The notes beneath the pieces are model-generated. The model did not search any database, was not told the origin of the DNA, and worked only from the letters and a program-made list of their open reading frames with translations. 64,000 bases of DNA from Flectonema sp. DT1601 (Eukaryota). Within the stretch, counting starts at the first letter, position 1; each line of letters starts with the position of its first letter. Of the stretch, positions 19,108 through 53,642 are shown piece by piece. The stretch lies in the NCBI GenBank assembly GCA_964019425.1, contig OZ025781.1:682001-746000 (forward strand), written 5' to 3'. A program made the translations under genes and the position numbers.

Positions 19108-20064
19108 GTACCCGCGGCGGCTTTCATACATGTTTTGTTCTGTATTGTTCTGTTAATCACAACCTTACCTTCGAACTGTGTTTTGACAACATTCCCTCAT
19201 TCGCATTGCGTGGTGAGGCGATAAAGAATTTATTATTTTTTTCTGATATTTTTATTTGTTCCTTTTTGTGACTTTTAAAGTTTTCGTTTTCTCTGATTTC
19301 TATCCCTTTTTGATTCTTGTTCAATTGAAAAAAAAAAAAAAAAAACAAGAATAACATAATGAATAACCGTAACGTTTACGTTGTTCTTGTGTTTTCTTTG
19401 TTTTCGAGGTGCGTTCATGGGGATTATTGTTTTTTTGTTTTGAGTTTTTGCTACGATTTGATATTTCTGTTTTTTTTATTTCATAGTTTTTGCTTTTTTT
19501 TTTTTTTCCCCCATTCTCCTGGGTGTGTTACTGACCCTCGAAAAAAAAAAAAAAAAATCAACGAAATCTTTAGGCACTCTGGTAAAACTTCTTATTTATT
19601 TGTATATTCTCTCCCATTTTAAATTTTTCTTTAGAATTAGAGCTTGACTCACAGTTTGTCAGCACCCCTGCTACTGCCATTGAGTATCTGCGAACCGTAT
19701 GGAAATAGGAATTACTTGCTAGACAAGTGTTTTGAGTAACAGCTGGTCAAGGCTTTTAATAACCTTAGCTTCAGCGAATGGTCCTAAGTAGACTTAAGTT
19801 AAGTAAGTGTGTTCTTTATCTCAACAGTACAAACAAACATGTCTCTTGCTCATTATTATTATATAGTCAACTGATGTAGAACCATATTCTTACAGCGAGG
19901 GCTATGCAGTTGGAGGCTTACCTCCGTTGCTCCTGCGACTCATTTCAATTTTTGAATGAGATGGTCCGAATGGCTGATCGTTAAACTTTCTCGATTCTGA
20001 TGACTTCAATACTTCTAATAATTGATCTTCGTGTTGTCTTCTTTATCTCATATTTATCTTTTTA

Positions 20065-26000: not shown

Positions 26001-26826
26001 TACTTTATGCTGATTGACTCTCCCTTTCTCTCTCTCTCTCTCTGGTATTTGATTTCCTGTTCTACATGAAGTTCCCCACCCGTGGGTAAATTCCATGGTG
26101 AATTGTATCCCATCAGTTCGTCATGGGAGAACCCATGGAAGATTCTTTTCCCTGCTATTGCTTTTCCACAGCTGTCTCACTTCCATTATCCTCACCAACT
26201 ACATGATGTACTAAACATACCATGCACCACTCTGATGATTCATGATTGATATGGTTACACACACACAAATATTTTATGCTGATTAACTCTCCCATTCTCT
26301 CTCTGGTATTTTTGATTTCCTGTTCTACAAGAAGTTCCCCACCCATGGGTAAATTCCATGGTGAATTGTATCCCATCAGTTCGTCATGGGAGAACCCATG
26401 GAAGATTCTTTTCCCTGCTATTGCTTTTCCACAGCTGTCTCACTTCCATTATCCTCACCAACTACATGATGTACTAAACATACCATGCACCACTCTGATG
26501 TTTCATGATTGATATGGTTACACACACACAAATACTTTATGCTGATTGACTCTCCCTTTCTCTCTCTCTCTCTCTGGTATTTGATTTCCTGTTCTACATG
26601 AAGTTCCCCACCCATGGGTAAATTCCATGGTGAATTGTATCCCATCAGTTCGTCATGGGAGAACCCATGGAAGATTCTTTCCCCTGCTATTGATTTTCCA
26701 CAGCTGTCTCACTTCCATTGTCCTCACCAACCACATGATGTACTAAACATACCATGCACCACTCTGATGTTTCATGATTGATATGGTTACACACACACAA
26801 ATATTTTATGCTGATTAACTCTCTCT
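20065..26826. repeat. Tandem satellite, 263-269 bp unit, 25 full copies plus a partial
   Basis: tgatgtactaaacatacc recurs at 20065, 20330, 20595 ... 26736; length variation lies in a (CT)n tract; a diverged remnant follows at about 26828-26863. Confidence 0.98.
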
Positions 26827-27010
26827 TTCCCTACCCCATGCGTAATTTCAATGGAGAATTGTAGTAGTGATATCGGGGGTGATGTACTATTTAACTTCGG
26901 TAAATTTACTTAACGAAGCACAACATTAATAACTTCTTAGAGACAAAAATATTATTTAATCACCTATTGCAGGCATCAACCTCAACTTAATAAATGAACG
27001 GGTTTGCTAA

Positions 27011-32658: not shown

Positions 32659-35600
32659 ATGCAAGTTTTTGTGACGTGTCCGGATTTGGGATTCCCTGCG
32701 GTGTCAGTCACGGTTGGTGCTGATTCTGTTGTGAGCGACGTGTTGATGGAAGCGGCTGGCGAGTGGGATGTCGATGCGGAGGAAGTTGTACTGTTGTTCG
32801 CTGGTGATGTCCTTTGTGAAAGTGAGCGGCTGGCAGATCATGGAGTGGGTGGAGACAGCGAGTTGGAAATGCGGAAGAAGCTGATTCGGATCTTCGGTAA
32901 AAACTGGTTTGTTGATGATAGAAAAAGGGAGATGCTGCTTCTTTGGATTAGAGATCACAATACGGAGGATTTATATCTGGACACTCTCACATTCTTGGAG
33001 GATGGTTGCCTCACTGTTGACAAAAGATTGCTTCCTTCAGATGCCAAACGGATTTCCTTCCGCCATTCAAACTCCAACAGCACGGTCATCTCACAAGTTA
33101 CTTCTATTGAAGATTTCTTTTTATCTAATTGTTCACAAATCACTTCTGTTGACCTTTCAGGTCTTAGTAGTGTCACCAGTATTGGATATCGTTTTTTGTC
33201 TGATTGTTCAGAAATCACTTCTCTTGACCTTTCAGGTCTTAGTAGTGTCACTAGTATTAAAGATTATTTTTTGTCTAGTTGTTCAGAAATCACTTCTCTT
33301 GACCTTTCAGGTCTCAGTAGTGTCACCAGTATTGGAAATCATTTTTTGTCTAGTTGTTCAAAAATCACTTCTCTTGACCTTTCAGGTCTTATTAGTGTCA
33401 CCAGTATTGGAAATTGTTTTTTGTCTTGGTGTTCAGAAATCACTTCTGTTAACCTTTCAGGTCTTAGTAGTGTCATCAATATTGGAAGTAATTTTTTGTC
33501 TTATTGTCAAAAAATCACTTCTCTTGACCTTTCAGGTCTTAGTAGTGTCACCAGAATTGGAGATTGTTTTTTGTCTTGGTGTTCACAAATAACTTCTGTT
33601 GACCTTTCAGGTCTTAGTAGTGTCACCAGTATTGGATATCGTTTTTTGTCTGATTGTTCAGAAATCACTTCTCTTGACCTTTCAGGTCTTAGTAGTGTCA
33701 CTAGTATTAAAGATTATTTTTTGTCTAGTTGTTCAGAAATCACTTCTCTTGACCTTTCAGGTCTCAGTAGTGTCACCAGTATTGGAAATCATTTTTTGTC
33801 TAGTTGTTCAAAAATCACTTCTCTTGACCTTTCAGGTCTTATTAGTGTCACCAGTATTGGAAATTGTTTTTTGTCTTGGTGTTCAGAAATCACTTCTGTT
33901 AACCTTTCAGGTCTTAGTAGTGTCATCAATATTGGAAGTAATTTTTTGTCTTATTGTCAAAAAATCACTTCTCTTGACCTTTCAGGTCTTAGTAGTGTCA
34001 CCAGAATTGGAGATTGTTTTTTGTCTTGGTGTTCACAAATAACTTCTGTTGACCTTTCAGGTCTTAGTAGTGTCACCAGTATTGGATATCGTTTTTTCTC
34101 TGAGTGTTCAGAAATCACTTCTCTTGACCTTTCAGGTCTTAGTAGTGTCACCAGTATTAGAAATCATTTTTTGTCTGATTGTTCAGAAATCACTTCTCTT
34201 GAACTTTCAGGTCTTAGTAGTGTCACTAGTATTGAAGGTTGTTTTTTGTCTAGTTGTTCAGAAATCACTTCTCTTGACCTTTCAGGTCTTAGTAGTGTCA
34301 CCAGTATTGGAAATTGTTTTTTGTCTAGTTGTTCAGAAATCACTTCTCTTGACCTTTCAGGTCTTAGTAGTGTCACCAGTATTGGAAATTGTTTTTTGTC
34401 TAGTTGTTCAGAAATCACTTCTCTTGACCTTTCAGGTCTTAGTAGTGTCATCAGTATTGGAAATCTTTTTTTGTCTAGTTGTTCAAAAATCACTTCTCTT
34501 GACCTTTCAGGTCTTAGTAGTGTCATCAGTATTGGAAATCTTTTTTTGTCTAGTTGTTCAGAAATCACTTCTCTTGACCTTTCAGGTCTTAGTAGTGTCA
34601 CCAGTATTGGAGATTGTTTTTTGTCTGAGTGTTCAGAAATCACTTCTCTCGACCTTTCAGGTCTTAGTAGTGTCACCAGTATTGGAGATTGTTTTTTGTC
34701 TGAGTGTTCAGAAATCACTTCTGTTAACCTTTCAGGTCTTAGTAGTGTCATCAATATTGGAAGTAATTTTTTGTCTTATTGTCAAAAAATCACTTCTCTT
34801 GACCTTTCAGGTCTTAGTAGTGTCACCAGAATTGGAGATTGTTTTTTGTCTTGGTGTTCACAAATAACTTCTGTTGACCTTTCAGGTCTTAGTAGTGTCA
34901 CCAGTATTGGATATCGTTTTTTGTCTGATTGTTCAGAAATCACTTCTCTTGACCTTTCAGGTCTTAGTAGTGTCACTAGTATTAAAGATTATTTTTTGTC
35001 TAGTTGTTCAGAAATCACTTCTCTTGACCTTTCAGGTCTCAGTAGTGTCACCAGTATTGGAAATCATTTTTTGTCTAGTTGTTCAAAAATCACTTCTCTT
35101 GACCTTTCAGGTCTTATTAGTGTCACCAGTATTGGAAATTGTTTTTTGTCTTGGTGTTCAGAAATCACTTCTGTTAACCTTTCAGGTCTTAGTAGTGTCA
35201 TCAATATTGGAAGTAATTTTTTGTCTTATTGTCAAAAAATCACTTCTCTTGACCTTTCAGGTCTTAGTAGTGTCACCAGAATTGGAGATTGTTTTTTGTC
35301 TTGGTGTTCACAAATAACTTCTGTTGACCTTTCAGGTCTTAGTAGTGTCACCAGTATTGGATATCGTTTTTTCTCTGAGTGTTCAGAAATCACTTCTCTT
35401 GACCTTTCAGGTCTTAGTAGTGTCACCAGTATTAGAAATCATTTTTTGTCTGATTGTTCAGAAATCACTTCTCTTGAACTTTCAGGTCTTAGTAGTGTCA
35501 CTAGTATTGAAGGTTGTTTTTTGTCTAGTTGTTCAGAAATCACTTCTCTTGACCTTTCAGGTCTTAGTAGTGTCACCAGTATTGGAAATTGTTTTTTGTC

Positions 35601-36063
35601 TAGTTGTTCAGAAATCACTTCTCTTGACCTTTCAGGTCTTAGTAGTGTCATCAGTATTGGAAATCTTTTTTTGTCTAGTTGTTCAAAAATCACTTCTCTT
35701 GACCTTTCAGGTCTTAGTAGTGTCATCAGTATTGGAAATCTTTTTTTGTCTAGTTGTTCAGAAATCACTTCTCTTGACCTTTCAGGTCTTAGTAGTGTCA
35801 CCAGTATTGGAGATTGTTTTTTGTCTGAGTGTTCAGAAATCACTTCTCTCGACCTTTCAGGTCTTAGTAGTGTCACCAGTATTGGAGATTGTTTTTTGTC
35901 TGAGTGTTCAGAAATCACTTCTGTTGACCTTTCAGGTCTTAGTGATGTTGAAGAAATTGGTGTGGCCTTCTTCGATAATTGCAGTGCCCTGAAATCTGTT
36001 CAGCTGCCTGAAAATAATGGAGCTCTCTTTGAACCGTCTGTGAAAGCTGCGATTAATCATTAA
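32659..36063 (+). CDS. UBL-LRR protein copy 1: ubiquitin-like domain + 38 x 25-aa BspA/TpLRR-type repeats
   Basis: MQVFV..LLFAGDVL..RLADHGVGGDSELEM aligns by eye with ubiquitin; ITSLDLSGLSSVTSIGxxFLSxCSx units with exact 75-bp period from 33151 to 35926; C-cap ending AAINH. Confidence 0.92.
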   Translation: MQVFVTCPDLGFPAVSVTVGADSVVSDVLMEAAGEWDVDAEEVVLLFAGDVLCESERLADHGVGGDSELEMRKKLIRIFGKNWFVDDRKREMLLLWIRDHNTEDLYLDTLTFLEDGCLTVDKRLLPSDAKRISFRHSNSNSTVISQVTSIEDFFLSNCSQITSVDLSGLSSVTSIGYRFLSDCSEITSLDLSGLSSVTSIKDYFLSSCSEITSLDLSGLSSVTSIGNHFLSSCSKITSLDLSGLISVTSIGNCFLSWCSEITSVNLSGLSSVINIGSNFLSYCQKITSLDLSGLSSVTRIGDCFLSWCSQITSVDLSGLSSVTSIGYRFLSDCSEITSLDLSGLSSVTSIKDYFLSSCSEITSLDLSGLSSVTSIGNHFLSSCSKITSLDLSGLISVTSIGNCFLSWCSEITSVNLSGLSSVINIGSNFLSYCQKITSLDLSGLSSVTRIGDCFLSWCSQITSVDLSGLSSVTSIGYRFFSECSEITSLDLSGLSSVTSIRNHFLSDCSEITSLELSGLSSVTSIEGCFLSSCSEITSLDLSGLSSVTSIGNCFLSSCSEITSLDLSGLSSVTSIGNCFLSSCSEITSLDLSGLSSVISIGNLFLSSCSKITSLDLSGLSSVISIGNLFLSSCSEITSLDLSGLSSVTSIGDCFLSECSEITSLDLSGLSSVTSIGDCFLSECSEITSVNLSGLSSVINIGSNFLSYCQKITSLDLSGLSSVTRIGDCFLSWCSQITSVDLSGLSSVTSIGYRFLSDCSEITSLDLSGLSSVTSIKDYFLSSCSEITSLDLSGLSSVTSIGNHFLSSCSKITSLDLSGLISVTSIGNCFLSWCSEITSVNLSGLSSVINIGSNFLSYCQKITSLDLSGLSSVTRIGDCFLSWCSQITSVDLSGLSSVTSIGYRFFSECSEITSLDLSGLSSVTSIRNHFLSDCSEITSLELSGLSSVTSIEGCFLSSCSEITSLDLSGLSSVTSIGNCFLSSCSEITSLDLSGLSSVISIGNLFLSSCSKITSLDLSGLSSVISIGNLFLSSCSEITSLDLSGLSSVTSIGDCFLSECSEITSLDLSGLSSVTSIGDCFLSECSEITSVDLSGLSDVEEIGVAFFDNCSALKSVQLPENNGALFEPSVKAAINH

Positions 36064-37933: not shown

Positions 37934-40220
37934 ATGCAAGTTTTTGTGACGTGTCCGGATTTAGGATTCCCTGCGGTGTCAGTCACGGTTGGTGCTGATT
38001 CTGTTGTGAGCGACGTGTTGATGGAAGCGGCTGGCGAGTGGGATGTCGATGCGGAGGAAGTTGTACTGTTGTTCGCTGGTGATGTCCTTTGTGAAAGTGA
38101 GCGGCTGGCAGATCATGGAGTGGGTGGAGACAGCGAGTTGGAAATTCGGAAGAAGCTGATTCGGATCTTCGGTAAAAACTGGTTTGTTGATGATAGAAAA
38201 AGGGAGATGCTGCTTCTTTGGATTAGAGATCACAATACGGAGGATTTATATCTGGACACTCCCACATTCTTGGAGGATGGTTGCCTCACTATTGACAAAA
38301 GATTGCTTCCTTCAGATGCCAAACGGATTTCCTTCCGCCATTCAAACTCCAACAGCACGGTCATCTCACAAGTTACTTCTATTGAAGATTTCTTTTTATC
38401 TGAGTGTTCAGAAATCACTTCTGTTGACCTTTCAGGTCTTAGTAGTATCACCAGTATTGGAGATGATTTTTTGTCTTATTGTTCAAAAATCACTTCTGTT
38501 GACCTTTCAGGTCTTAGTAGTGTCACCAGTATTGGAAATCATTTTTTATTTCGTTGTTCAGAAATCACTTCTCTTGACCTTTCAGGTCTTAGTAGTGTCA
38601 CCAGTATTGGAAATCATTTTTTATTTCGTTGTTCAGAAATCACTTCTGTTGACCTTTCAGGTCTTATTGGTATCACCAGTATTGAAAATTACTTTTTAAA
38701 TAATTGTTTACAAATCACTTCTGTTGACCTTTCAGGTCTTAGTAGTGTCACCAGTATTGGATATCATTTTTTGTCTGAGTGTTCAGAAATCACTTCTCTT
38801 GACCTTTCAGGTCTTAGTAGTGTCACCAGTATTGGAGATTATTTTTTGTCTAGTTGTTCAGAAATCACTTCTCTTGACCTTTCAGGTCTTAGTAGTGTCA
38901 CTAGTATTAAAGATTATTTTTTGTCTAGTTGTTCAGAAATCACTTCTCTTGACCTTTCAGGTCTTAGTAGTGTCATCAGTATTGGAAATCTTTTTTTGTC
39001 TAGTTGTTCAAAAATCACTTCTCTTGACCTTTCAGGTCTTATTAGTGTCACCAGTATTGGAAATTGTTTTTTGTCTTGGTGTTCAGAAATCACTTCTGTT
39101 AACCTTTCAGGTCTTAGTAGTGTCATCAATATTGGAAGTAATTTTTTGTCTTATTGTCAAAAAATCACTTCTCTTGACCTTTCAGGTCTTAGTAGTGTCA
39201 CCAGAATTGGAGATTGTTTTTTGTCTTGGTGTTCACAAATAACTTCTGTTGACCTTTCAGGTCTTAGTAGTGTCACCAGTATTGGATATCGTTTTTTCTC
39301 TGAGTGTTCAGAAATCACTTCTCTTGACCTTTCAGGTCTTAGTAGTGTCACCAGTATTAGAAATCATTTTTTGTCTGATTGTTCAGAAATCACTTCTCTT
39401 GAACTTTCAGGTCTTAGTAGTGTCACTAGTATTGAAGGTTGTTTTTTGTCTAGTTGTTCAGAAATCACTTCTCTTGACCTTTCAGGTCTTAGTAGTGTCA
39501 TCAGTATTGGAAATTGTTTTTTGTCTTGGTGTTCACAAATAACTTCTGTTGACCTTTCAGGTCTTAGTAGTGTCACCAGTATTGGATATCGTTTTTTCTC
39601 TGAGTGTTCAGAAATCACTTCTCTTGACCTTTCAGGTCTTAGTAGTGTCACCAGTATTAGAAATCATTTTTTATTTCGTTGTTCAGAAATCACTTCTCTT
39701 GACCTTTCAGGTCTTAGTAGTGTCACCAGTATTAAAAGTTCTTTTTTGTCTTATTGTTCAGAAATCACTTCTCTTGACCTTTCAGGTCTTAGTAGTGTCA
39801 CCAGTATTAAAAGTTCTTTTTTGTCTTATTGTTCAGAAATCACTTCTCTTGACCTTTCAGGTCTTAGTAGTGTCACCAGTATTGGATATCAATTTTTGTC
39901 TAATTGTTCAGAAATCACTTCTGTTGACCTTTCAGGTCTTAGTAGTGTCACTAGTATTGGAAATGATTTTTTATTTCGTTGTTCAGAAATCACTTCTCTT
40001 GACCTTTCAGGTCTTAGTAGTGTCACCAGTATTAAAAGTTCTTTTTTGTCTTATTGTTCAGAAATCACTTCTCTTGACCTTTCAGGTCTTAGTAGTGTCA
40101 CCAGTATTGGATATCAATTTTTGTCTAATTGTTCAGAAATCACTTCTGTTGACCTTTCAGGTCTTAGTAGTGTCACCAGTATTGGAGATTGTTTTTTGTC
40201 TTATTGTTCAGAAATCACTT
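37934..40220 (+). CDS. UBL-LRR copy 2, 5' part (24 repeats), interrupted by and fused in frame to retrotransposon ORF1
   Basis: Same UBL and LRR units; repeats stop at gaaatcactt (40220) while the frame stays open to 43243. Confidence 0.88.
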
Positions 40221-40288
40221 GGGATCACGACACCTGCCTCCTCGCGGCGGTCCCGGACGACTTCGATAGGGGTCGACAAAACAGTGTC
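40221..40288 (+). ncRNA. HDV-like self-cleaving ribozyme (predicted)
   Basis: P1 GGGAUC/GGUCCC, P2 GACAC(C)U/AGUGUC, P3 GCC/GGC with L3 UCCUCGC, GG for P1.1, P4 CGACUUC-GAUA-GGGGUCG, J4/2 ACAAAAC; starts at the first base of the element. Confidence 0.8.
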
Positions 40289-40576
40289 AAACACAAGAGA
40301 TGCCAACAACATCAAAACCATCAAAACCAGCTACAACATCCAGAGCATACAAACCCTGGCTTGTCAAATAAAGAACGGAATAAACTAGCCCATGCCTTGA
40401 ATGGCAATGGTGGACCAGGAAAGGACAGCAGAGACCGACGCCCGCGAGACGATACTCGCGACAGGGACGAAAACCGTCCAAACAAGGAGGAACGTCGCAT
40501 AGCGAAGCTCGAGAAAGAGAAACTCGACTCGCTAGACGAGATAGAGGAAGAGAAGCAACGACTGGGGCAGCAGAGA

Positions 40577-43243
40577 ATGGCCATGGAACAGCACCACCAC
40601 CAGAAGGAAACCAACCTTCAAGGACAAGAAAAACAGTTGGAACAGCAACGCCAACACCAACAACAAGAACTGCAAAGTCAGTACCACCAACAACAGCAGC
40701 AACTGCAAAGCCATCATCAGCTGAAGGAAACGGAAAGTTTCCAGAAGGAGCAAAACCTACAGGCTCAACTCAAGGAGCGACACCAGCACCAACAGAAGGA
40801 ATTGGAGAAGCAATACCGCCAACAACAACAGCAACTGGAAAGCCAACAGCAGAAGAAGGACGCCGAGTCTGAACAGCAAACACATCTGACTCGGTTACAA
40901 CTACAGAAGGAAAAGGAATCCTTCCAGACAGAGAAGGAACGGCTCCACCTCCAGCTGGATCAGCAGTTGAAGAACGAGAAGGAGCACCTCCACCAACAAC
41001 TCCAACAGAAGGAAGACGAGGTTCGTAAAGAAAAGTTAGCAGAGAGAATAGAACTCCAACAACTACGAGATGAACTAACTCAACAAGAACAGAACATCCA
41101 ACGACGTGAGGAAGAGGTGAACCGAGGACAGCACCAACTACACCAACAACAACAACAACTAGAGCAGCAGCAACAGCAATCGCAACATCAGCAACTGGAA
41201 CTACAACAACAACGGCAACAACAGCAACAGCAACAACAGCATCAACAACTGGAACTACAACAACAACAACAACAACAGCACCAACAACAGCATCAACAAC
41301 TGGAACTGGAACAACAACAACTACAACAGCAACAGCAACTGCAACAACATCGACAACCGCAACAACAACCGCAACAGCAACCCGTACACTACATGCAACA
41401 TCAACCGTATGCAACGTACGACACCTACGCCCAGCAGCAGCAGTCTTCCCACTACGAAGGGCTACAACAGGAACTGAAGCGCGAAAGAGAGGAGAAGAGC
41501 GAACTACGCGAGATGCTCCGAACTCTCCAACAACAACTGGACGGATTGAGAGAAGAACTCAAGGCCCAACATGCTGAGGCGAAGAGGCAGCAGGAAACGG
41601 CGGGACGAGAAGCGAGAGAGATGCAAGAACGTTTCTTGCTAGAACTCGAAGCGGAACGGGTCCAGATCAGAGGGCTCAACTCGCTGAGAGAAGAGGAAGA
41701 GGAACTTCAGATGGACACCACCCCTGATCAGGAAGCAAACACGGAAGTGAAGCAAACGCCACCGGTGAAGCTGCCCCAAGACGGTATGAGGGAGCTGGAC
41801 GCCTCACGCAAGAAGCTGATGAAAGAAATCAATGAAGGGCAGGTAGCCGGACGATCGGCCATCCAAGAGCAGATGGTCCGAGAGGCCGGGAGACTGGCGC
41901 AGACTCAGAAGAGCTGGGAGAACGCAGCACGCAAGGAGCGATCCAGGGTGGATAACCTCTCGCTGGCACCGGAATACTGGCCAGAGGGAATGGCGATCAC
42001 GAAGGAGCAGTACGACGCCGGTGCAAAGGGAGTACACCTCACCACCAGAGAGGAGGCAAGGAAGAGGATGTCGGGAACACCTCCGGGAGCCTGGGAAACG
42101 TTATCCCTGGTAACCCTGGAACCACCATCAAGCACGGCCCAAAAAGTACAAGTGGTACTGAAGGAGACGACGAGCGACGGCGAGAAGAGAATTCTCAAGC
42201 AGCTCTGGATGACAACACTGGGAAGAGTGGTTGTACCATCCGGAACAGACGTCGTGCGGACGGAAAGCACGAGGGAGATGGTTGTCCGAGTGGACAAAAA
42301 ATGGTCCGGAGAGAAGAGATGGTCGGAAGTGAAGCGCTCCCCGTTCAGAGCAACGGAGGAATTGAAGAAGATGCCGGGGTACGTCGATACGTACAACCCG
42401 CGGATCGGAGACCAGAGCGTGACCGTGATGCTCAGGGTGAAGGTAGCCGAAGTGAAGAACTTCCTCCGAGAATCGGGGAAGGACGGCGTCTTCACCAAGG
42501 AAAAGGATCCGAGAGAGGAACGAGCAGTGAAGGCGGCGGTCATTTGGCTACCGAAGGACGAGACGCTCGGAATCGCTCGGGACAAGGCTGTAGAAGTCGA
42601 TGGAGGGCTGGGACTCGTGGTAAACGAACACGGACTCGGGCTTCGAGTGACCAGCTGGCAGGAAACGGCGGCGAGGGAGAAACTGCACCTGCCGGCTAAG
42701 CTACCGGAAACAAAGATCACGGGGATACCGATCGGCACAACCACCGACGAAGCGATCAAGTGGCTGATCACGAAGGAAGGCTGGGAAGTGAGGAAGACGA
42801 AGGAAGGCGTACGGAACGGCATGCGATGGATGGTCGTCCGCGGTCCGGTGAGAACGCAGGAAACCATCACAGTGGATGGCGTCCTGTGCATGGTGGAGGC
42901 TGGGAAACAGAAGGAGGAAGTCGACCCGAAACGGAAGGAGACCAAACGCCCGAATGCGACACCGACGAAACCAGAGAAAAGGCGTGACCCGACGGAGGGA
43001 ACGGGAGGAAAGTGGTACACTCGATTGGAGTTCATCGAGTTTCATGGGAAGAAGAAGGGACAACGCCTATGGTTAGAAGCCAGCAACCCAACACCAACTA
43101 CGACGGCACCTACGAAGGCAGCGACCGCAACGACAACAGCGAAAAAGGAGCCCAAGTCGACAAAAAAGAAGGAGAACAGCTCAGTGGACGAGAGATTGGA
43201 CCGACTGGAACGTCTACTGATGGCGTTCATGGAACGGAATTGA
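40577..43243 (+). CDS. Retrotransposon ORF1 (Gln/Glu-rich coiled coil plus basic C-terminal half); true start uncertain
   Basis: Frame is open from the element's 5' end; first in-frame ATG at 40577; long Q/E-rich helical region; TGA at 43241-43243. Confidence 0.8.
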   Translation: MAMEQHHHQKETNLQGQEKQLEQQRQHQQQELQSQYHQQQQQLQSHHQLKETESFQKEQNLQAQLKERHQHQQKELEKQYRQQQQQLESQQQKKDAESEQQTHLTRLQLQKEKESFQTEKERLHLQLDQQLKNEKEHLHQQLQQKEDEVRKEKLAERIELQQLRDELTQQEQNIQRREEEVNRGQHQLHQQQQQLEQQQQQSQHQQLELQQQRQQQQQQQQHQQLELQQQQQQQHQQQHQQLELEQQQLQQQQQLQQHRQPQQQPQQQPVHYMQHQPYATYDTYAQQQQSSHYEGLQQELKREREEKSELREMLRTLQQQLDGLREELKAQHAEAKRQQETAGREAREMQERFLLELEAERVQIRGLNSLREEEEELQMDTTPDQEANTEVKQTPPVKLPQDGMRELDASRKKLMKEINEGQVAGRSAIQEQMVREAGRLAQTQKSWENAARKERSRVDNLSLAPEYWPEGMAITKEQYDAGAKGVHLTTREEARKRMSGTPPGAWETLSLVTLEPPSSTAQKVQVVLKETTSDGEKRILKQLWMTTLGRVVVPSGTDVVRTESTREMVVRVDKKWSGEKRWSEVKRSPFRATEELKKMPGYVDTYNPRIGDQSVTVMLRVKVAEVKNFLRESGKDGVFTKEKDPREERAVKAAVIWLPKDETLGIARDKAVEVDGGLGLVVNEHGLGLRVTSWQETAAREKLHLPAKLPETKITGIPIGTTTDEAIKWLITKEGWEVRKTKEGVRNGMRWMVVRGPVRTQETITVDGVLCMVEAGKQKEEVDPKRKETKRPNATPTKPEKRRDPTEGTGGKWYTRLEFIEFHGKKKGQRLWLEASNPTPTTTAPTKAATATTTAKKEPKSTKKKENSSVDERLDRLERLLMAFMERN

Positions 43244-43285
43244 CCGGCGGAGGACGGAAGGAACTGGGCGGAGACACGGAGACGT

Positions 43286-43327
43286 CTCCTGCTACAAGCT
43301 GGCGACGTTGAGAGGAACCCCGGACCG
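43286..43327 (+). other. 2A-like (StopGo) ribosomal skipping peptide LLLQAGDVERNPG/P
   Basis: Translation from 43244 gives PAEDGRNWAETRRRLLLQAGDVERNPGPRPRIDGLTVGTINV, matching D(V/I)ExNPGP, in frame with both ORFs. Confidence 0.9.
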
Positions 43328-46300
43328 AGACCACGAATCGATGGGCTCACCGTGGGAACAATCAATGTCACCACACTAGAAGGAAAAATAGATGCCATCA
43401 CAGATCTGAACCTAGATCTGATAGCTCTACAGGAAACTTCTCTGACGGGCCCACAGCAACGCCAGATGAAAAAACAGCTCGGTGAGAGAGGATGGGAAGC
43501 GACGTTCGGGTTAGAGTGCAAATTACTAACCGATGGGCAAAAGACGTGGACGGCGGCGGGAGGCGTGGCCATCTTGACGCGCACTGGTACACCGGTGAGA
43601 AGGATAAAACACGATCGGCTCGACAACACGGGACGATTCGTACACGCGGGAGTGTCGTACGGAAATGGCAAGGTACTGCACGTTTTCTCGTTCTACGGAG
43701 ACGTACGTTCGGCGGTCTACACGGAAGAGTTGATTGCGGAGATGCTCGTGGAAGCAGCAGCTCTGGGTGATGTTCCCGTATTTATAGCGGGGGACTTCAA
43801 CGTCGAAACAACGGAATCGCCGGCGCTTCTGTCGGCTTTCGCACACGGACTCTGGATAGATGCCGCCGTCTCGATGGGAAACATGACACCGACAAGCGAA
43901 GCGGGAAAAGGACTTCGTAGAATCGATGCGATTCTGATGAACCGCGGGGCGGCGACAGCAATCTCGAATGACACAACGATCCATGTGCATAAGAGTGAGC
44001 TGATCCCGACACACAAGCCGGTCATCATTAGAAAGCTCAACATCTCACGCTACAACGAGAAGGCTCCTAGGCTGATAGTACCGAAACAGTTGGATACCTC
44101 CGAGACAACGGACCCGAGTGAGGGGAAGGCCGAAAGGCAACTCCACTGGACGCGAGCTGTAGCGACGGAAGATCCTGACAAGATGCTGGAGGCGCTTGGA
44201 GAGATCATCGAAAGATACCTTCTGACGGGAAAGCTGGAGATAAGTAACCCAGCCAAGTACAAGGGACGCGGGAAGAAGCGTGAGCCTGTGATGTGGACGA
44301 ACGCGGCGAAACAAGACGGGAGAGGAGCGACGTGCAGGGAAACGCGGAGAAGACTGCAGAAGATACGTGTTCTGGAGGAAGTGATGAAAATCACAAAGCA
44401 ACGCGATGGTCCGACGGTGCCGTCCCACGAAGTAATGAAACTCTGGAAAAAATTACGAAAACTCGATCCGACGACGGGATCCGAAATACCACAGACGGAG
44501 GAGCTTCGGATACTACTACAACAAGCGAGACAGGAGCAAGCGATAGAAAGCAAGAAGCTCCGAACTGAACGCATCCGCATGTGGAAACGGAATGTTGTCG
44601 ACAATTGGAATGACGACCGCACGAAGGTTTTCCAGTGGATCAGGAACGTCGAGCAATCGAAGACTGTTCTGATGGAAAAGGCAGATGGAAGCTGGACGGC
44701 CAACTGCTCCGAGATGGATGAGGCCATGCACGCGGCATGGGACCCCATACTCAAAAAGTACTTATCAGACCCGGAACCAGACTGGATGAAGTTCGAAGAA
44801 CGGTACAGCAACTACATCGAGGAACACCCGATGCGATGCGAAGATATCACCGGGGAGGACGTTGCAAAAGCCCTCAGAAGGACTAGCTCGCGCAAAGCAG
44901 CTGGGGTAGACGGCTTCAGGATATCGGAGCTCAAGTCGCTACCGGAGGACATGATCCAGATGATAGCGGAATTCTACAACATAGTGGAGAGAACACACTG
45001 GCCGGAAGCACTTCTCACGGCACTGGTGTCGGCCATACCCAAAGGGGCAGGGACGAAACCACTGGAGCAGAGACCCATTACGGTGACATCCGCACTCTAC
45101 AGGCTATGGGGCTGTATACGTATGGAAAAGGATGTAATGGAGTGGCAAGAGAAGTGGGCTCACGACGGGCAGTACGGCTACCGGAAGGGGAGATCTACGC
45201 TCGACCTCAGCTGGAAGATAGCACTAGACGTGGAACACGCAACTCTCTACGGAGAAGAGATTGCTGGAGTGACCACGGACTTCAGGAAGTGTTTTGACCT
45301 GATCCCGCACGACATCCTCCTGAAATTAGTGAAGGAATTGGGCCTAAGTGATAAGATCCTGAAAACTGTGACGGATGTCTACCGGCGACTCAGAAGGAGA
45401 TTCAAGTTCCCGAGCGGCGTCGGAGAAGAATTTGCCACCACCAACGGAATACTGCAAGGATGCCCGCTCAGCGTGGTGCTCTTCAATGCGCTGAGCTCGA
45501 TACTCAGCAAAGCAATCGAGAGGGAAGCCGATGTGACGCCCGGATCGTATGCGGACGACCTGACATTGTTTGGATCACGAACGAAGCTACAAGAAGGCGT
45601 AGAAGTCGTTGCGGAGTTCTGCACCCTGACCGGACAAGAACTCGCGCCTCAGAAATGCAAGTGGTTCTCGAACAGAGACCAGGGCCAGACCAACATCACA
45701 ATGGGGGACACAACACTGGACTTCGATGACAGTGTCGATATCGTGGGATGCCACCTCAGTATGAAAGGAACCACCAAGCAGATGGGGAGGATCACGGAAG
45801 AAGTGCTCGATAGAGCGAGGCGAATCCAGTTACTTCCGCTCAGATACCAAGCGAAGGAACAGATAGCTGCAGCTAGTGTCATGCCCAAGGCGCTCTTCGG
45901 AACGGCACTGTACGATCCCGATGCGACGCGACTCGGACTGCTGAGAAGAGCAATGGCAACGGGGATTTTCCGCAAACTTGGAGGGAAAAGAACTAAGATG
46001 TCGCACACCATGGGCCTAACGCTACTCTGCAAGGGACATTGTGTGGATCCCGCGACGTACATTAGGTACAACAGACTCCTTGCACTCACCAGAATGCTAC
46101 CGAAGCTAACTGAGAGGATACGCAGGGTATGGGAACACCTGCAAGAGCACACTGAAGCGACGAGAGGACCAGTCGGCCTCGCCCTGAGTACTCTGAAGGA
46201 ACTTGGATGGGAATGGTCAACTTTCTCGGTCTTCGAAGGTCCGGGAGGGACGACCGAACACGGAAGGCTGGATGCGGGGCGCTGGCGGCACGATGTCAGA

Positions 46301-47980
46301 GAGGCGTGCAGGCGTTTCACCTGGAACAAAACAATTGCGGAAACGAGACGGGTAAACCTGAGAGGTATTGAAGCGGGCATCGACCGGAAAGAGACCCTGA
46401 AGGTCCTGAAGGAAGGAAAGGGCGACCCCTACCTGCGCGGAGTAGTGAAGCACTGCCTCCTGGACAACGTGTACACTGGCTCGATGAAGGCGGGAAACAA
46501 GAACTGCGCGCACTGCGAGGAGGTTGACGACGTAGAGAGGACGGAGACCCTCGAGCACGTGAACTGGGATTGCAGAGCTTATGACACAATCCGACAGGAA
46601 TACCCGCAAGTGATGCTACAAGTTCGAAGCGATTGGCCCAATTGCCTGAGGCTACTCGGCATCAAGCCCGACAATGTGGAACTGCCGGCGGGGCTCACCG
46701 GAGACCTACAACGAATGTTCGCACGGATCAGGCTCCGCAGGGACGACTACCAACAACTGGAGGAGAGACGGCTGACGGTTGTGGAATACGCTGGGAACAA
46801 GGAACCGGAAGTAGTTATGCGATACAACAACAAACTGGAAAAGTACATGCCAGTATACACCCAATGGCCCGAAGCCCTTGGATTGACCTTGTACTTAGCG
46901 CTTGCGAGCTACCTGAGGGAACTGAAGTGGCCTCGACAGCCAGACGGGGTCGGAGTCACCTTCCTGGAATTAGCGATCGACTTCGAAGCGTATGCGGGGG
47001 TTGACATACCGACCACAGTCCACGAAGGCCACGTAGCGAAGTGCACCAAAGACAGAGCCGCCGGGAAGAAAGCTGACGTCATGTGTGGACTGATGCTAAG
47101 ATTGAACTTGGTTCACAAGCATTTAGAAGGCGAGGAACAAAGAACCTTTCCCGACTACTGCGTAGGAAGCAACAAAGCCTTACGTCCACTAGGAGCCCCG
47201 GTACTGAAAGGTTTGAAGAAACGACCAGCTTTTCTGATGGGAGACGAAACAGTAGACACAATTCGGAGGACGGTCCAGGAGGCGAACGACGGAAAAGCTG
47301 ACAAAATCAGATTCGGCTTCGAGACTGAGTGCAGGCACTCGAGCGAGAGGGAAGGGAGAGCGGAGAAATGGATAACCGCGGCACGACTTTTCCCATCAAA
47401 GGAAAAAGACGTACAGCTGAGGAGGGAGCTCTGCGAGCGAGGACCGACACGCCCGCCACCCGAGGTCGTCAAGAGACCGGGCATCGCGGAGGGACAAGGA
47501 ACGATGAACTCGACGTGCTACGGACACTTCAAGAAGAAATGCAATAGTTGTCGACGGGCCGGAAACACCATCTACCAGTGCTGCCACAACCATCACACTC
47601 TGGGGGATGAAGATGGACAAATACCGATATGGGACTTTTGCAGCAAGCACAAGCTTACTCCATGTGCAGTCTGCATAGTGATCGGCAGAGGATCTGAGCA
47701 ATGTTGCAGAAACAGCCACCACCGATGCCGTCACCACGAGATGGCTCCCTGCAACGACTGCAAGCGGAATCCGGATCCGGAACAACGGACTGCCACGAAA
47801 TGCTGCAACAAAAAGCATCACGGGCCAATTATAAGGACGTTGACGAGGAGGGCGAAGCAGCCGACGAAGCATGATATGCAAACCAGCACATCGCTTCTAA
47901 AATTAGGTTTCACCAAACAAATGAAACCGAAAGCAGAGGAAACCCCGGAAAGGGAACCACAGGACAAGGGGTTAACTTAG
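43325..47980 (+). CDS. Retrotransposon ORF2: APE endonuclease + reverse transcriptase + CCHC knuckle + Cys/His repeats (start given at the 2A proline)
   Basis: APE: GTINV, IALQET, GGVAIL, IAGDFN, RIDAIL, PTH. RT: AAGVDG, RPITV, QYGYRKGRS, DFRKCFD, GILQGCPLS, YADD. CAHC..ETLEHVNWDC knuckle. No stops or frameshifts. Confidence 0.95.
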   Translation, partial: PRPRIDGLTVGTINVTTLEGKIDAITDLNLDLIALQETSLTGPQQRQMKKQLGERGWEATFGLECKLLTDGQKTWTAAGGVAILTRTGTPVRRIKHDRLDNTGRFVHAGVSYGNGKVLHVFSFYGDVRSAVYTEELIAEMLVEAAALGDVPVFIAGDFNVETTESPALLSAFAHGLWIDAAVSMGNMTPTSEAGKGLRRIDAILMNRGAATAISNDTTIHVHKSELIPTHKPVIIRKLNISRYNEKAPRLIVPKQLDTSETTDPSEGKAERQLHWTRAVATEDPDKMLEALGEIIERYLLTGKLEISNPAKYKGRGKKREPVMWTNAAKQDGRGATCRETRRRLQKIRVLEEVMKITKQRDGPTVPSHEVMKLWKKLRKLDPTTGSEIPQTEELRILLQQARQEQAIESKKLRTERIRMWKRNVVDNWNDDRTKVFQWIRNVEQSKTVLMEKADGSWTANCSEMDEAMHAAWDPILKKYLSDPEPDWMKFEERYSNYIEEHPMRCEDITGEDVAKALRRTSSRKAAGVDGFRISELKSLPEDMIQMIAEFYNIVERTHWPEALLTALVSAIPKGAGTKPLEQRPITVTSALYRLWGCIRMEKDVMEWQEKWAHDGQYGYRKGRSTLDLSWKIALDVEHATLYGEEIAGVTTDFRKCFDLIPHDILLKLVKELGLSDKILKTVTDVYRRLRRRFKFPSGVGEEFATTNGILQGCPLSVVLFNALSSILSKAIEREADVTPGSYADDLTLFGSRTKLQEGVEVVAEFCTLTGQELAPQKCKWFSNRDQGQTNITMGDTTLDFDDSVDIVGCHLSMKGTTKQMGRITEEVLDRARRIQLLPLRYQAKEQIAAASVMPKALFGTALYDPDATRLGLLRRAMATGIFRKLGGKRTKMSHTMGLTLLCKGHCVDPATYIRYNRLLALTRMLPKLTERIRRVWEHLQEHTEATRGPVGLALSTLKELGWEWSTFSVFEGPGGTTEHGRLDAGRWRHDVREACRRFTWNKTIAETRRVNLRGIEAGIDRKETLKVLKEGKGDPYLRGVVKHCLLDNVYTGSMKAGNKNCAHCEEVDDVERTETLEHVNWDCRAYDTIRQEYPQVMLQVRSDWPNCLRLLGIKPDNVELPAGLTGDLQRMFARIRLRRDDYQQLEERRLTVVEYAGNKEPEVVMRYNNKLEKYMPVYTQWPEALGLTLYLALASYLRELKWPRQPDGVGVTFLELAIDFEAYAGVDIPTTVHEGHVAKCTKDRAAGKKADVMCGLMLRLNLVHKHLEGEEQRTFPDYCVGSNKALRPLGAPVLKGLKKRPAFLMGDETVDTIRRTVQEANDGKADKIRFGFETECRHSSEREGRAEKWITAARLFPSKEKDVQLRRELCERGPTRPPPEVVKRPGIAEGQGTMNSTCYGHFKKKCNSCRRAGNTIYQCCHNHHTLGDEDGQIPIWDFCSKHKLTPCAVCIVIGRGSEQCCRNSHHRCRHHEMAPCNDCKRNPDPEQRTATKCCNKKHHGPIIRTLTRRAKQPTKHDMQTSTSLLKLGFTKQMKPKAEETPEREPQDKGLT

Positions 47981-48054
47981 GTTGGCCGAACCAGTGCCTC
48001 GTCATCTCACCGTGCTAGCAAGCCTGAATGACAGCACTCAAAATGGTACATATA

Positions 48055-48817
48055 TTGGTGTTCACAAATAACTTCTGTTGACCTTTCAGGTCTTAGTAGT
48101 GTCACCAGTATTGGATATCGTTTTTTCTCTGAGTGTTCAGAAATCACTTCTCTTGACCTTTCAGGTCTTAGTAGTGTCACCAGTATTAGAAATCATTTTT
48201 TGTCTGATTGTTCAGAAATCACTTCTCTTGAACTTTCAGGTCTTAGTAGTGTCACTAGTATTGAAGGTTGTTTTTTGTCTAGTTGTTCAGAAATCACTTC
48301 TCTTGACCTTTCAGGTCTTAGTAGTGTCACCAGTATTGGAAATTGTTTTTTGTCTAGTTGTTCAGAAATCACTTCTCTTGACCTTTCAGGTCTTAGTAGT
48401 GTCATCAGTATTGGAAATCTTTTTTTGTCTAGTTGTTCAAAAATCACTTCTCTTGACCTTTCAGGTCTTAGTAGTGTCATCAGTATTGGAAATCTTTTTT
48501 TGTCTAGTTGTTCAGAAATCACTTCTCTTGACCTTTCAGGTCTTAGTAGTGTCACCAGTATTGGAGATTGTTTTTTGTCTGAGTGTTCAGAAATCACTTC
48601 TCTCGACCTTTCAGGTCTTAGTAGTGTCACCAGTATTGGAGATTGTTTTTTGTCTGAGTGTTCAGAAATCACTTCTGTTGACCTTTCAGGTCTTAGTGAT
48701 GTTGAAGAAATTGGTGTGGCCTTCTTCGATAATTGCAGTGCCCTGAAATCTGTTCAGCTGCCTGAAAATAATGGAGCTCTCTTTGAACCGTCTGTGAAAG
48801 CTGCGATTAATCATTAA
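48055..48817 (+). pseudogene. Orphaned 3' part of a UBL-LRR gene (9 repeats + C-cap) downstream of the retrotransposon
   Basis: Matches 35301-36063 of copy 1 (both 763 bp); has no start codon of its own. Confidence 0.88.
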
Positions 48818-50687: not shown

Positions 50688-53642
50688 ATGCAAGTTTTTG
50701 TGACGTGTCCGGATTTAGGATTCCCTGCGGTGTCAGTCACGGTTGGTGCTGATTCTGTTGTGAGCGACGTGTTGATGGAAGCGGCTGGCGAGTGGGATGT
50801 CGATGCGGAGGAAGTTGTACTGTTGTTCGCTGGTGATGTCCTTTGTGAAAGTGAGCGGCTGGCAGATCATGGAGTGGGTGGAGACAGCGAGTTGGAAATT
50901 CGGAAGAAGCTGATTCGGATCTTCGGTAAAAACTGGTTTGTTGATGATAGAAAAAGGGAGATGCTGCTTCTTTGGATTAGAGATCACAATACGGAGGATT
51001 TATATCTGGACACTCCCACATTCTTGGAGGATGGTTGCCTCACTATTGACAAAAGATTGCTTCCTTCAGATGCCAAACGGATTTCCTTCCGCCATTCAAA
51101 CTCCAACAGCACGGTCATCTCACAAGTTACTTCTATTGAAGATTTCTTTTTATCTGAGTGTTCAGAAATCACTTCTGTTGACCTTTCAGGTCTTAGTAGT
51201 ATCACCAGTATTGGAGATGATTTTTTGTCTTATTGTTCAAAAATCACTTCTGTTGACCTTTCAGGTCTTAGTAGTGTCACCAGTATTGGAAATCATTTTT
51301 TATTTCGTTGTTCAGAAATCACTTCTCTTGACCTTTCAGGTCTTAGTAGTGTCACCAGTATTGGAAATCATTTTTTATTTCGTTGTTCAGAAATCACTTC
51401 TGTTGACCTTTCAGGTCTTATTGGTATCACCAGTATTGAAAATTACTTTTTAAATAATTGTTTACAAATCACTTCTGTTGACCTTTCAGGTCTTAGTAGT
51501 GTCACCAGTATTGGATATCATTTTTTGTCTGAGTGTTCAGAAATCACTTCTCTTGACCTTTCAGGTCTTAGTAGTGTCACCAGTATTGGAGATTATTTTT
51601 TGTCTAGTTGTTCAGAAATCACTTCTCTTGACCTTTCAGGTCTTAGTAGTGTCACTAGTATTAAAGATTATTTTTTGTCTAGTTGTTCAGAAATCACTTC
51701 TCTTGACCTTTCAGGTCTTAGTAGTGTCATCAGTATTGGAAATCTTTTTTTGTCTAGTTGTTCAAAAATCACTTCTCTTGACCTTTCAGGTCTTATTAGT
51801 GTCACCAGTATTGGAAATTGTTTTTTGTCTTGGTGTTCAGAAATCACTTCTGTTAACCTTTCAGGTCTTAGTAGTGTCATCAATATTGGAAGTAATTTTT
51901 TGTCTTATTGTCAAAAAATCACTTCTCTTGACCTTTCAGGTCTTAGTAGTGTCACCAGAATTGGAGATTGTTTTTTGTCTTGGTGTTCACAAATAACTTC
52001 TGTTGACCTTTCAGGTCTTAGTAGTGTCACCAGTATTGGATATCGTTTTTTCTCTGAGTGTTCAGAAATCACTTCTCTTGACCTTTCAGGTCTTAGTAGT
52101 GTCACCAGTATTAGAAATCATTTTTTGTCTGATTGTTCAGAAATCACTTCTCTTGAACTTTCAGGTCTTAGTAGTGTCACTAGTATTGAAGGTTGTTTTT
52201 TGTCTAGTTGTTCAGAAATCACTTCTCTTGACCTTTCAGGTCTTAGTAGTGTCATCAGTATTGGAAATTGTTTTTTGTCTTGGTGTTCACAAATAACTTC
52301 TGTTGACCTTTCAGGTCTTAGTAGTGTCACCAGTATTGGATATCGTTTTTTCTCTGAGTGTTCAGAAATCACTTCTCTTGACCTTTCAGGTCTTAGTAGT
52401 GTCACCAGTATTAGAAATCATTTTTTGTCTGATTGTTCAGAAATCACTTCTCTTGAACTTTCAGGTCTTAGTAGTGTCACTAGTATTGAAGGTTGTTTTT
52501 TGTCTAGTTGTTCAGAAATCACTTCTCTTGACCTTTCAGGTCTTAGTAGTGTCATCAGTATTGGAAATTGTTTTTTGTCTTGGTGTTCACAAATAACTTC
52601 TGTTGACCTTTCAGGTCTTAGTAGTGTCACCAGTATTGGATATCGTTTTTTCTCTGAGTGTTCAGAAATCACTTCTCTTGACCTTTCAGGTCTTAGTAGT
52701 GTCACCAGTATTAGAAATCATTTTTTGTCTGATTGTTCAGAAATCACTTCTCTTGAACTTTCAGGTCTTAGTAGTGTCACTAGTATTGAAGGTTGTTTTT
52801 TGTCTAGTTGTTCAGAAATCACTTCTCTTGACCTTTCAGGTCTTAGTAGTGTCATCAGTATTGGAAATTGTTTTTTGTCTAGTTGTTCAGAAATCACTGC
52901 TCTTGACCTTTCAGGTCTTAGTAGTGTCATCAGTATTGGAAATCTTTTTTTGTCTTGTTGTTCAAAAATCACTTCTCTTGACCTTTCAGGTCTTAGTAGT
53001 GTCACCAGTATTGGAAATTGTTTTTTGTCTAGTTGTTCAGAAATCACTGCTCTTGACCTTTCAGGTCTTAGTAGTGTCATCAGTATTGGAGATGATTTTT
53101 TGTCTTGTTGTTCAAAAATCACTTCTCTTGACCTTTCAGGTCTTAGTAGTGTCATCAGTATTGGAAATCTTTTTTTGTCTTGTTGTTCAAAAATCACTTC
53201 TCTTGACCTTTCAGGTCTTAGTAGTGTCACCAGTATTGGAAATTGTTTTTTATTTAGTTGTTCAGAAATCACTTCTCTTGACCTTTCAGGTCTTAGTAGT
53301 GTCACCAGTATTGGAAATCATTTTTTATTTCGTTGTTCAGAAATGACTTCTCTCGACCTTTCAGGTCTTAGTAGTGTCACCAGTATTGGAGATTGTTTTT
53401 TGTCTGAGTGTTCAGAAATCACTTCTCTCGACCTTTCAGGTCTTAGTAGTGTCACCAGTATTGGAGATTGTTTTTTGTCTGAGTGTTCAGAAATCACTTC
53501 TGTTGACCTTTCAGGTCTTAGTGATGTTGAAGAAATTGGTGTGGCCTTCTTCGATAATTGCAGTGCCCTGAAATCTGTTCAGCTGCCTGAAAATAATGGA
53601 GCTCTCTTTGAACCGTCTGTGAAAGCTGCGATTAATCATTAA
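50688..53642 (+). CDS. UBL-LRR protein copy 3 (32 repeats)
   Basis: Intact 984-aa ORF with the same architecture as copy 1. Confidence 0.92.
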   Translation: MQVFVTCPDLGFPAVSVTVGADSVVSDVLMEAAGEWDVDAEEVVLLFAGDVLCESERLADHGVGGDSELEIRKKLIRIFGKNWFVDDRKREMLLLWIRDHNTEDLYLDTPTFLEDGCLTIDKRLLPSDAKRISFRHSNSNSTVISQVTSIEDFFLSECSEITSVDLSGLSSITSIGDDFLSYCSKITSVDLSGLSSVTSIGNHFLFRCSEITSLDLSGLSSVTSIGNHFLFRCSEITSVDLSGLIGITSIENYFLNNCLQITSVDLSGLSSVTSIGYHFLSECSEITSLDLSGLSSVTSIGDYFLSSCSEITSLDLSGLSSVTSIKDYFLSSCSEITSLDLSGLSSVISIGNLFLSSCSKITSLDLSGLISVTSIGNCFLSWCSEITSVNLSGLSSVINIGSNFLSYCQKITSLDLSGLSSVTRIGDCFLSWCSQITSVDLSGLSSVTSIGYRFFSECSEITSLDLSGLSSVTSIRNHFLSDCSEITSLELSGLSSVTSIEGCFLSSCSEITSLDLSGLSSVISIGNCFLSWCSQITSVDLSGLSSVTSIGYRFFSECSEITSLDLSGLSSVTSIRNHFLSDCSEITSLELSGLSSVTSIEGCFLSSCSEITSLDLSGLSSVISIGNCFLSWCSQITSVDLSGLSSVTSIGYRFFSECSEITSLDLSGLSSVTSIRNHFLSDCSEITSLELSGLSSVTSIEGCFLSSCSEITSLDLSGLSSVISIGNCFLSSCSEITALDLSGLSSVISIGNLFLSCCSKITSLDLSGLSSVTSIGNCFLSSCSEITALDLSGLSSVISIGDDFLSCCSKITSLDLSGLSSVISIGNLFLSCCSKITSLDLSGLSSVTSIGNCFLFSCSEITSLDLSGLSSVTSIGNHFLFRCSEMTSLDLSGLSSVTSIGDCFLSECSEITSLDLSGLSSVTSIGDCFLSECSEITSVDLSGLSDVEEIGVAFFDNCSALKSVQLPENNGALFEPSVKAAINH

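Follow-up and report, generated by a model that had tools for sequence, protein, structure and literature searches.

A candidate HDV-like ribozyme at the 5′ boundary of a diplonemid non-LTR retrotransposon

The 64,000-nucleotide stretch of DNA analysed here (the window) carries a non-LTR retrotransposon whose first 68 nucleotides (40221–40288, + strand; GGGAUCACGACACCUGCCUCCUCGCGGCGGUCCCGGACGACUUCGAUAGGGGUCGACAAAACAGUGUC) probably constitute a functional 5′ HDV-like ribozyme. As predicted from its sequence, this ribozyme would cut 5′ of G40221, that is, between nucleotides 40220 and 40221, and the predicted cut coincides with the 5′ boundary of the element. The assignment draws on pairing read from the sequence, on alignment to the Rfam HDV model (RF00094), and on the sole match in the window to a structural descriptor. 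HDV-like ribozymes at the 5′ ends of LINEs are established for R2, L1Tc/ingi, and a few other clades; the candidate described here appears to be of this known kind and would add a host group.

Insertion site and element

Protein similarity places the host among the diplonemids, as a relative of Flectonema. An RMND1-like protein encoded in the window shares 78% identity with a Flectonema neradi protein and 36–41% with the Rhynchopus and Lacrimia proteins and with those of two species of Diplonema. Open reading frames (ORFs) of at least 250 amino acids outside the element all lie on the + strand; the minus strand carries just two of this size, both within the element. A BspA-type LRR gene built of 75-bp units is present in the window as four paralogues arranged in tandem (32659–36063; 37934–40220 plus 48075–~48750; 50688–53642; and 55402–57681), of which the second harbors the insertion and is 97% identical to the next one. 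Elsewhere, a satellite-like array between genes (20064–26827) consists of 25.3 copies of a 269-bp tandem repeat (95% matches); its GC skew is strongly negative.

The retrotransposon insertion spans nucleotides 40221–48074 on the + strand (7.85 kb), with the end of the element proper at either 48054 or 48074, and lies in sense orientation inside the LRR gene. Its GC content is 52–58%, compared with ~36% for the host DNA. Judged from the domains that it encodes, the element is an intact LINE with an APE endonuclease and a reverse transcriptase (RT). Both flanks belong to a BspA-type LRR array with a 75-bp period (Pfam PF13306). The upstream part of the interrupted gene (37934–40220, + strand) is built of 75-bp units and is in frame with ORF1; the downstream part (+ strand) runs from 48075 to an approximate end at ~48750.

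The 5′ boundary was located by two comparisons. When nucleotides 40151–48100 were compared with the window by BLAST, 113 of the 260 rows were LRR units that aligned to query positions 1–70 and ended at 40220. When nucleotides 40221–48074 were excised, the rejoined gene aligned to the paralogue at 50688–53095 with 97.2% identity over 2408 nucleotides, spanning the 40220|48075 join. Because this alignment crosses the join free of gaps, the non-host DNA begins at G40221, the base with which P1 opens. HDV-like ribozymes are described as cleaving at the first nucleotide of P1 (PMC4908430); in the candidate, at the level of DNA, P1 begins with the first base that does not belong to the host. The original prediction had placed the start of P1 at the insertion junction, and the BLAST boundary and the paralogue alignment together bear this out. 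It had also proposed that the copy is full length. With ORF1 and the 1542-residue, APE- and RT-containing ORF2 intact and both boundaries defined, the copy indeed looks full length.

On the 3′ side, the last non-LRR base is 48054. It is followed by a 20-nucleotide segment (48055–48074) that is either an LRR-like tail or a copy of a target-site duplication; a poly(A) tail is absent from the 3′ end of the element. This segment (ttggTGTTCACAAATAACTT) and nucleotides 40201–40220 (ttatTGTTCAGAAATCACTT) form an in-phase repeat with 4 differences in 20 positions. Both versions are natural variants of the LRR unit, and the downstream TGTTCACAAATAACTT occurs 11 further times in the window. The repeat is compatible with LRR sequence that the element RNA brought along from a donor copy and that was used for joining by homology; if true, this reading would suggest insertion that is homology-guided or site-specific. 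It is explained equally well as a target-site duplication that was later changed by conversion between repeat units. These observations bear on an earlier suggestion that inefficient cleavage would allow transduction of upstream LRR sequence. The suggestion found no direct support in this copy, the non-host DNA of which starts exactly at G1, and we regard the path from slow cleavage to LRR transduction as speculation.

The interrupted LRR gene and ORF1 together form one open frame of 1769 amino acids (37934–43243). As this frame is uninterrupted, an uncleaved co-transcript could encode an LRR-ORF1 fusion; the chance of an in-frame junction is 1 in 3.

Fold of the ribozyme candidate

The nested double pseudoknot originally proposed for nucleotides 40221–40288 was recovered in full: standard pairs suffice to draw all five helices, in canonical order and each in place. 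P1 pairs 40221–40226 (GGGAUC) with 40249–40254 (GGUCCC) through 6 bp (GC, GC, GC, AU, UG, and CG), and P2 pairs 40229–40233 (GACAC) with 40284–40288 (GUGUC) through 5 bp (duplex energy −4.8 kcal/mol). P3 joins 40236–40238 (GCC) to 40246–40248 (GGC) in 3 bp and encloses L3 (40239–40245, UCCUCGC). P1.1 comprises two pairs, G40255–C40241 and G40256–C40240. P4 pairs 40258–40264 with 40269–40275 through 7 bp, two of them U·G, around a GAUA loop (−8.9 kcal/mol), and is present in the minimum free energy (MFE) fold as well. J4/2 (40277–40283, CAAAACA) is 7 nucleotides long and begins with C40277, the candidate catalytic cytosine. All of these parts are read on the + strand.

The sequence of L3 had been singled out as HDV-like, and the comparison with RF00094 agrees. 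All 13 of the aligned P3-L3-P3 bases equal the consensus, and one consensus base is absent. The conserved U and G of L3, which are reverse-wobble partners, are both there (U40239 and G40244); the importance of the L3 G in HDV-like ribozymes has been described (PMC3774820). The first position of the J4/2 junction is given as the catalytic C in a description of HDV-like ribozymes (PMC10879173). C40277, which the original prediction had named as the catalytic base, aligns with the catalytic C of the model, within the model's GGCuAA, and a 2-nucleotide insertion is placed in J4/2. Unpaired A40276 lies between P4 and C40277. Since C40277 is the second base past the last Watson–Crick pair of P4, an A40257·A40276 mismatch must be assumed.

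Two departures from the usual form, a short P1 and a long J4/2, had been pointed out beforehand, and both are real. The usual J4/2 junction in HDV-like ribozymes is C-N-R-A. The junction of the candidate exceeds a cytosine plus three bases leading into P2 by 3 nucleotides and is a true oddity. One possible reading of the sequence accommodates its extra bases as a U40235–A40281 pair plus, at P2's inner end, a 1×2 internal loop, which would leave CAAA. P1 has 6 bp and is closed by G1–C, with no G·U wobble. A seventh P1 pair with the flank, U40220·G40255, is possible; the U at −1 can thereby lengthen P1 if one P1.1 pair is given up, and our descriptor (see below) finds the seventh pair only if P1.1 is allowed a single pair. 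Such P1 extensions are described as lowering cleavage in L1Tc (PMC3185411). Slow cleavage had been raised as a possibility from these features. The deviations stand and slowness is possible, but it does not follow from a P1 of 6 bp, which is ordinary in R2, where P1 is typically 6 or 7 bp long (PMC3774820).

The same departures could be taken to mean that the sequence is a genuine HDV-like descendant that is catalytically weak or dead, the element's 5′ terminus being set instead by a +1 internal promoter or by a host nuclease. In addition to the three extra bases of J4/2, the 6-bp P1, and the pairing of G1 to C, this reading can call on L1Tc, in which a promoter (Pr77) and a ribozyme occupy the same 77 nucleotides (PMC3383444), and on R2, some slightly defective ribozymes of which are described as inactive in vitro (PMC3774820). 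We nevertheless consider it unlikely. The conserved core positions are all intact in what appears to be an intact element of a young, multi-copy family; R2 ribozymes can accommodate a P1 of 6 bp as well as P2 mismatches, the latter being common among them (PMC3774820); and the extra J4/2 bases may be accommodated by the internal loop and the U40235–A40281 pair. An active ribozyme remains the preferred reading of the fold.

The free energy of the nested fold (P1, P3, and P4) is −19.8 kcal/mol, compared with −19.9 kcal/mol for the MFE. This energy is unremarkable, in that 149 of 200 shuffles were at least as stable (z 0.61 and 0.56). With 60 nucleotides of upstream flank added, the MFE structure pairs the flank with P4.

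Support from models and descriptors

Rfam was run in E-value mode with 4227 families on nucleotides 40000–40500 (501 nucleotides). RF00094 was the best match among these families, with a score of 20.6 bits at 40219–40291 (model positions 1–89; gathering threshold 50) and an E-value of 1.1, which corresponds to ~3e-4 for one family when divided by the 4227 families. A second, independent HDV-type model, RF02682, scored 12.8 bits at 40220–40289 (gathering threshold 44); each of the two alignments spans its model from end to end. At gathering thresholds, Rfam gave no match anywhere in the 64-kb window. A yardstick for these scores is provided by a near-canonical HDV-like ribozyme on a metagenome contig (L044, 974–1068, minus strand), which also scores below the RF00094 gathering threshold (33.6 bits). 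The L044 ribozyme has a fully paired 6-bp P1, GGGCAAC after P1, and C-AGA before P2; the proteins of L044 are unrelated to the diplonemid element.

Our own descriptor called for a P1 of 6–7 bp, a P3 of three Watson–Crick pairs, a 7-nucleotide L3 of the form U....G., a P1.1 of two pairs, a P4 of 4 bp or more, a C at most 1 nucleotide after P4 followed by 3–6 more junction bases, and a P2 of at least 5 bp. It matched once in the two strands of the window taken together (128 kb), at 40221. Dinucleotide shuffles of the element gave 0 matches in 1000, and shuffles of the host part gave 9 matches in 8 of 300; the resulting expectation is ~0.03 matches per window, or ~1e-7 per position. Decoy descriptors in which A, G, or U replaced the catalytic C gave 0 matches. 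The descriptor was written after the candidate was known and its rates are therefore optimistic; despite this optimism, the margin over the shuffles is large. Stricter versions, with J4/2 restricted to C plus three bases or P1 restricted to 7 bp, do not match the candidate. Very loose versions match 8 to 45 times in the window, and specificity thus rests on the conserved core.

A DNA pattern scan with GG-N13-GCCTCCTCGCGGC-N4-CCGG (a 19-base pattern) found 1 viral locus and at least 120 metagenome loci. When 121 of these loci were examined, all 6 P1 pairs could be formed in 1, 5 pairs in 25, 4 in 51, 3 in 33, and 2 in 11, and none of the 121 encoded relatives of ORF1 or ORF2. Most of the loci lie in GC-rich sequences and have a poorly paired P1; these are taken to be chance matches.

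Could the candidate itself be a chance likeness in a GC-rich 5′ untranslated or coding stretch? Rfam scores below thresholds, the numerous hits of very loose descriptors, the ordinary energy of the nested fold, and the recurrence of the 19-base pattern in unrelated metagenome contigs, with P1 fully paired in a single examined locus, would all fit this explanation. It would leave unaccounted for why a full layout so rarely expected in shuffles is found at the very position that matters, and why two Rfam HDV models agree on its span. We judge chance to be a very improbable explanation and retain that of an HDV-like ribozyme.

Open reading frames and their expression

The ORF1 frame (40223–43243, + strand) is open from element nucleotide 3, has its first in-frame ATG at 40577, and ends at a TGA (43241–43243). 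Its protein is Q-rich/coiled-coil, and searches with it returned no Pfam family, no solved relative, and Atlas scores of at most 0.76. The frame runs through the ribozyme and contains no in-frame ATG for 118 codons; 93 of 5000 shuffles were equally open. A lone early ATG (40300) is out of the ORF1 frame and is followed by a stop in its own frame at 40369. Initiation of ORF1 may be non-AUG or ribozyme-assisted.

The open frame and the late AUG also invite the explanation that the 68-nucleotide fold serves translation, and HDV-like ribozymes are mentioned in connection with translation initiation of retrotransposons (PMC4908430). Such a function does not explain why P1 starts at the exact first base of the element. 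Moreover, it is compatible with cleavage and is no true alternative to it. As the account of the fold it strikes us as quite improbable, and a self-cleaving ribozyme is preferred.

ORF2 (43352–47980, + strand) encodes 1542 amino acids comprising an APE endonuclease (PF03372, E 1.9e-6), a reverse transcriptase (PF00078, E 1.1e-23), and C-terminal Cys/His-rich repeats. Among solved proteins, human L1 ORF2p (E 3.8e-17) comes closest to it, and R2 proteins (E 2.6e-10) also rank among the best matches. The C-terminus contains two C-x2-C-x10-14-CC-x3-HH motifs (47663–47821) and a similar third one upstream (~47540–47600), to which no Pfam family matched.

ORF1 and ORF2 lie in one frame, split by the single TGA at 43241–43243 (AAT TGA C). 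The sequence after the TGA and directly before the APE domain reads ...RRRLLLQAGDVERNPGP, with the 2A-type motif LLLQAGDVERNPGP. This ribosome-skipping motif (DVERNPGP; 43304–43327, + strand) is located in the shared ORF1/ORF2 frame. The arrangement suggests that ORF2p would be made by read-through of the stop followed by ribosome skipping. The motif is kept in Flectonema neradi P0005 as NLLLQANDVEENPGP, where the ORF is uninterrupted, and is degenerate (NPGL) in P0004; 1 of 149 other top ORF2 representatives (P0099) has it. 2A peptides are described from Ingi, L1Tc, and several metazoan LINE clades (PMC3708506). The Flectonema transcripts P0004 and P0005 share a conserved N-terminal domain of ~190 amino acids (MH..PG.GRHALECGWA.LNW...), located before 2A/APE in the same ORF. 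This domain (residues 1–~190) is unlike the C-terminus of ORF1 of the diplonemid element.

Copies and relatives

Four other full-length ORF2 products of 1542 amino acids were found, 98.4–99.5% identical to that of the element, together with fragments; these copies probably come from the same assembly as the window. More distant relatives are 59–61% identical in Flectonema transcripts and 52% and 30% identical in two further clusters. A total of 387 ORF2 representatives were found at E ≤1e-30. Among the best 10 of these, the 3 named clusters are all diplonemid (Rhynchopus and Diplonema ambulator). In the ORF2 protein search, none of 12 matches was named as trypanosomatid. From these sequence comparisons, the element appears to belong to a young, multi-copy, active-looking family within a diplonemid-wide LINE lineage.

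Searches of Logan contigs (X1–X3) with nucleotides 40181–40980 and 40100–48200 returned, for the 5′ end and for ORF1/ORF2, one contig apiece at a depth of ~2, and no variant copies over either region. Protein-guided searches with ORF2 yielded no relative among 78 pattern matches in metagenome_contigs, among 5 (ORF2 alone) and 90 (alignment A1) in viral_contigs, or among 53 (ORF2 alone) in genome_contigs. The search of genome_contigs with alignment A1 gave 26 loci, 25 of which cover the endonuclease part only (residues 1–226) and belong to records with bacterial titles. The remaining locus, L122 (358–3831), is a LINE ORF2 that is 32% identical over residues 3–1113. It resides on a 5-kb contig of a MAG labelled 'uncultured actinobacterium' and probably represents a eukaryotic (diplonemid-type) contaminant in that bin. 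The 357 nucleotides upstream of the L122 ORF2 gave no HDV-like match with Rfam or the descriptor; one very loose descriptor match falls inside the RT coding region.

Discussion

The position of the candidate suggests how it may act. Self-release from host read-through transcripts is predicted at the junction because an HDV-type fold begins exactly there. Polycistronic transcription is known in other Euglenozoa. In the scheme that we propose, RNA polymerase would read through the LRR gene or a polycistron and thereby place the element in a co-transcript. P1, P1.1, P2, P3, and P4 would then fold, and C40277 and a bound Mg2+ would catalyse attack by the 2′-OH of U40220. The 3′ product would carry a 5′-OH at G40221, would be of unit length, and would retain the whole ribozyme, so that copies made by target-primed reverse transcription would inherit the ribozyme without upstream host sequence. 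New copies would have a precise 5′ end, since the 3′ product would start at +1 and keep the ribozyme; the 5′ end of the present copy, at 40221, agrees with this scheme. Translation, too, may benefit from a 5′ end that is structured and uncapped. Analogy makes release from host co-transcripts likely: the 5′ HDV-like ribozyme of L1Tc is described as freeing that element from polycistronic transcripts (PMC3383444), and that of R2 as freeing it from rRNA co-transcripts (PMC3774820).

In several respects, the candidate resembles the trypanosomatid L1Tc ribozyme (L1TcRz, in the Pr77 hallmark of L1Tc/ingi elements). Both are HDV-like and occupy the first ~70–77 nucleotides of a euglenozoan APE-type LINE, and the cleavage of L1TcRz at +1, its retention on the element RNA, and its proposed role in release (PMC3185411, PMC3383444) are the properties predicted for the candidate. 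A 2A peptide lies ahead of the APE domain in both elements (PMC3708506), and the pairing of ribozyme and 2A parallels that of L1Tc. The two differ in the core: the L1Tc ribozyme is described with C1 and a one-pair P1.1 (PMC3185411), whereas the diplonemid element has G1 and a two-pair P1.1. Trypanosomatid ribozymes are reported to depart from HDV and R2 in the GC orientation of P1 and in P1.1 (PMC4035085), in contrast to the HDV-type core found here. The core sequence thus seems closer to HDV and R2 than to L1Tc, with L1Tc judged from its published description. Unlike L1Tc, the diplonemid element has two ORFs split by an in-frame UGA and no 3′ poly(A), and the named relatives of its ORF2 (3 of the best 10) are diplonemid, with none trypanosomatid.

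R2, an element of insects and other animals, likewise carries a 5′ HDV-like ribozyme that processes a host co-transcript and whose active-site sequence converges on that of HDV; its P1 of 6 or 7 bp, P2 of at least 5 bp, and variable P4 (PMC3774820) are like those of the candidate. R2 differs in having 28S rDNA as its specific target, and many of its ribozymes have their cleavage site upstream, within the 28S sequence; the diplonemid element has an APE endonuclease, two ORFs, an insertion site in a BspA-type LRR gene, and a P1 wholly within the element. Compared with the genomic HDV ribozyme (RF00094), the candidate has the same nested double pseudoknot, a matching P3-L3-P3, GG for P1.1 after P1, and an aligned C followed by A-A in J4/2. 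It is unlike HDV in that L3 is shorter by one base, P1 has 6 bp instead of 7, P4 is short, and J4/2 carries three additional bases. P1 of the HDV ribozyme opens with a G1·U wobble, in place of which the candidate has G1–C.

Diplonemids are a very abundant, little-studied marine group whose transposons are, to our knowledge, uncharacterised. The literature that we searched, judged by titles, contained nothing on ribozymes in diplonemid retrotransposons, and the word 'ribozyme' is absent from the Diplonema papillatum genome paper. The candidate is apparently the first HDV-like retrotransposon ribozyme in diplonemids.

It is tempting to speculate further that diplonemid and trypanosomatid elements share an ancient design of euglenozoan LINEs, in which a 5′ HDV-like ribozyme is paired with a 2A peptide placed ahead of the endonuclease. 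In the present element, this design would be joined by an AUG-less ORF1, open from ribozyme nucleotide 3, with cap-independent, ribozyme-coupled initiation; by read-through of UGA-C into 2A-ORF2; and by a 20-nucleotide LRR copy at the 3′ end that guides in-phase insertion into BspA-type LRR arrays. We regard this composite picture as doubtful.

If the 5′ ribozyme is genuine, diplonemids would join the groups whose LINEs carry HDV-like ribozymes at their 5′ ends, and annotation of this LINE family would gain a defined 5′ end. Structure-function studies could also draw on the candidate as a natural variant whose J4/2 is long. The ribozyme, the 2A motif, and the UGA, taken together, would offer a way to ask whether an expression strategy of the L1Tc type predates the split between kinetoplastids and diplonemids.
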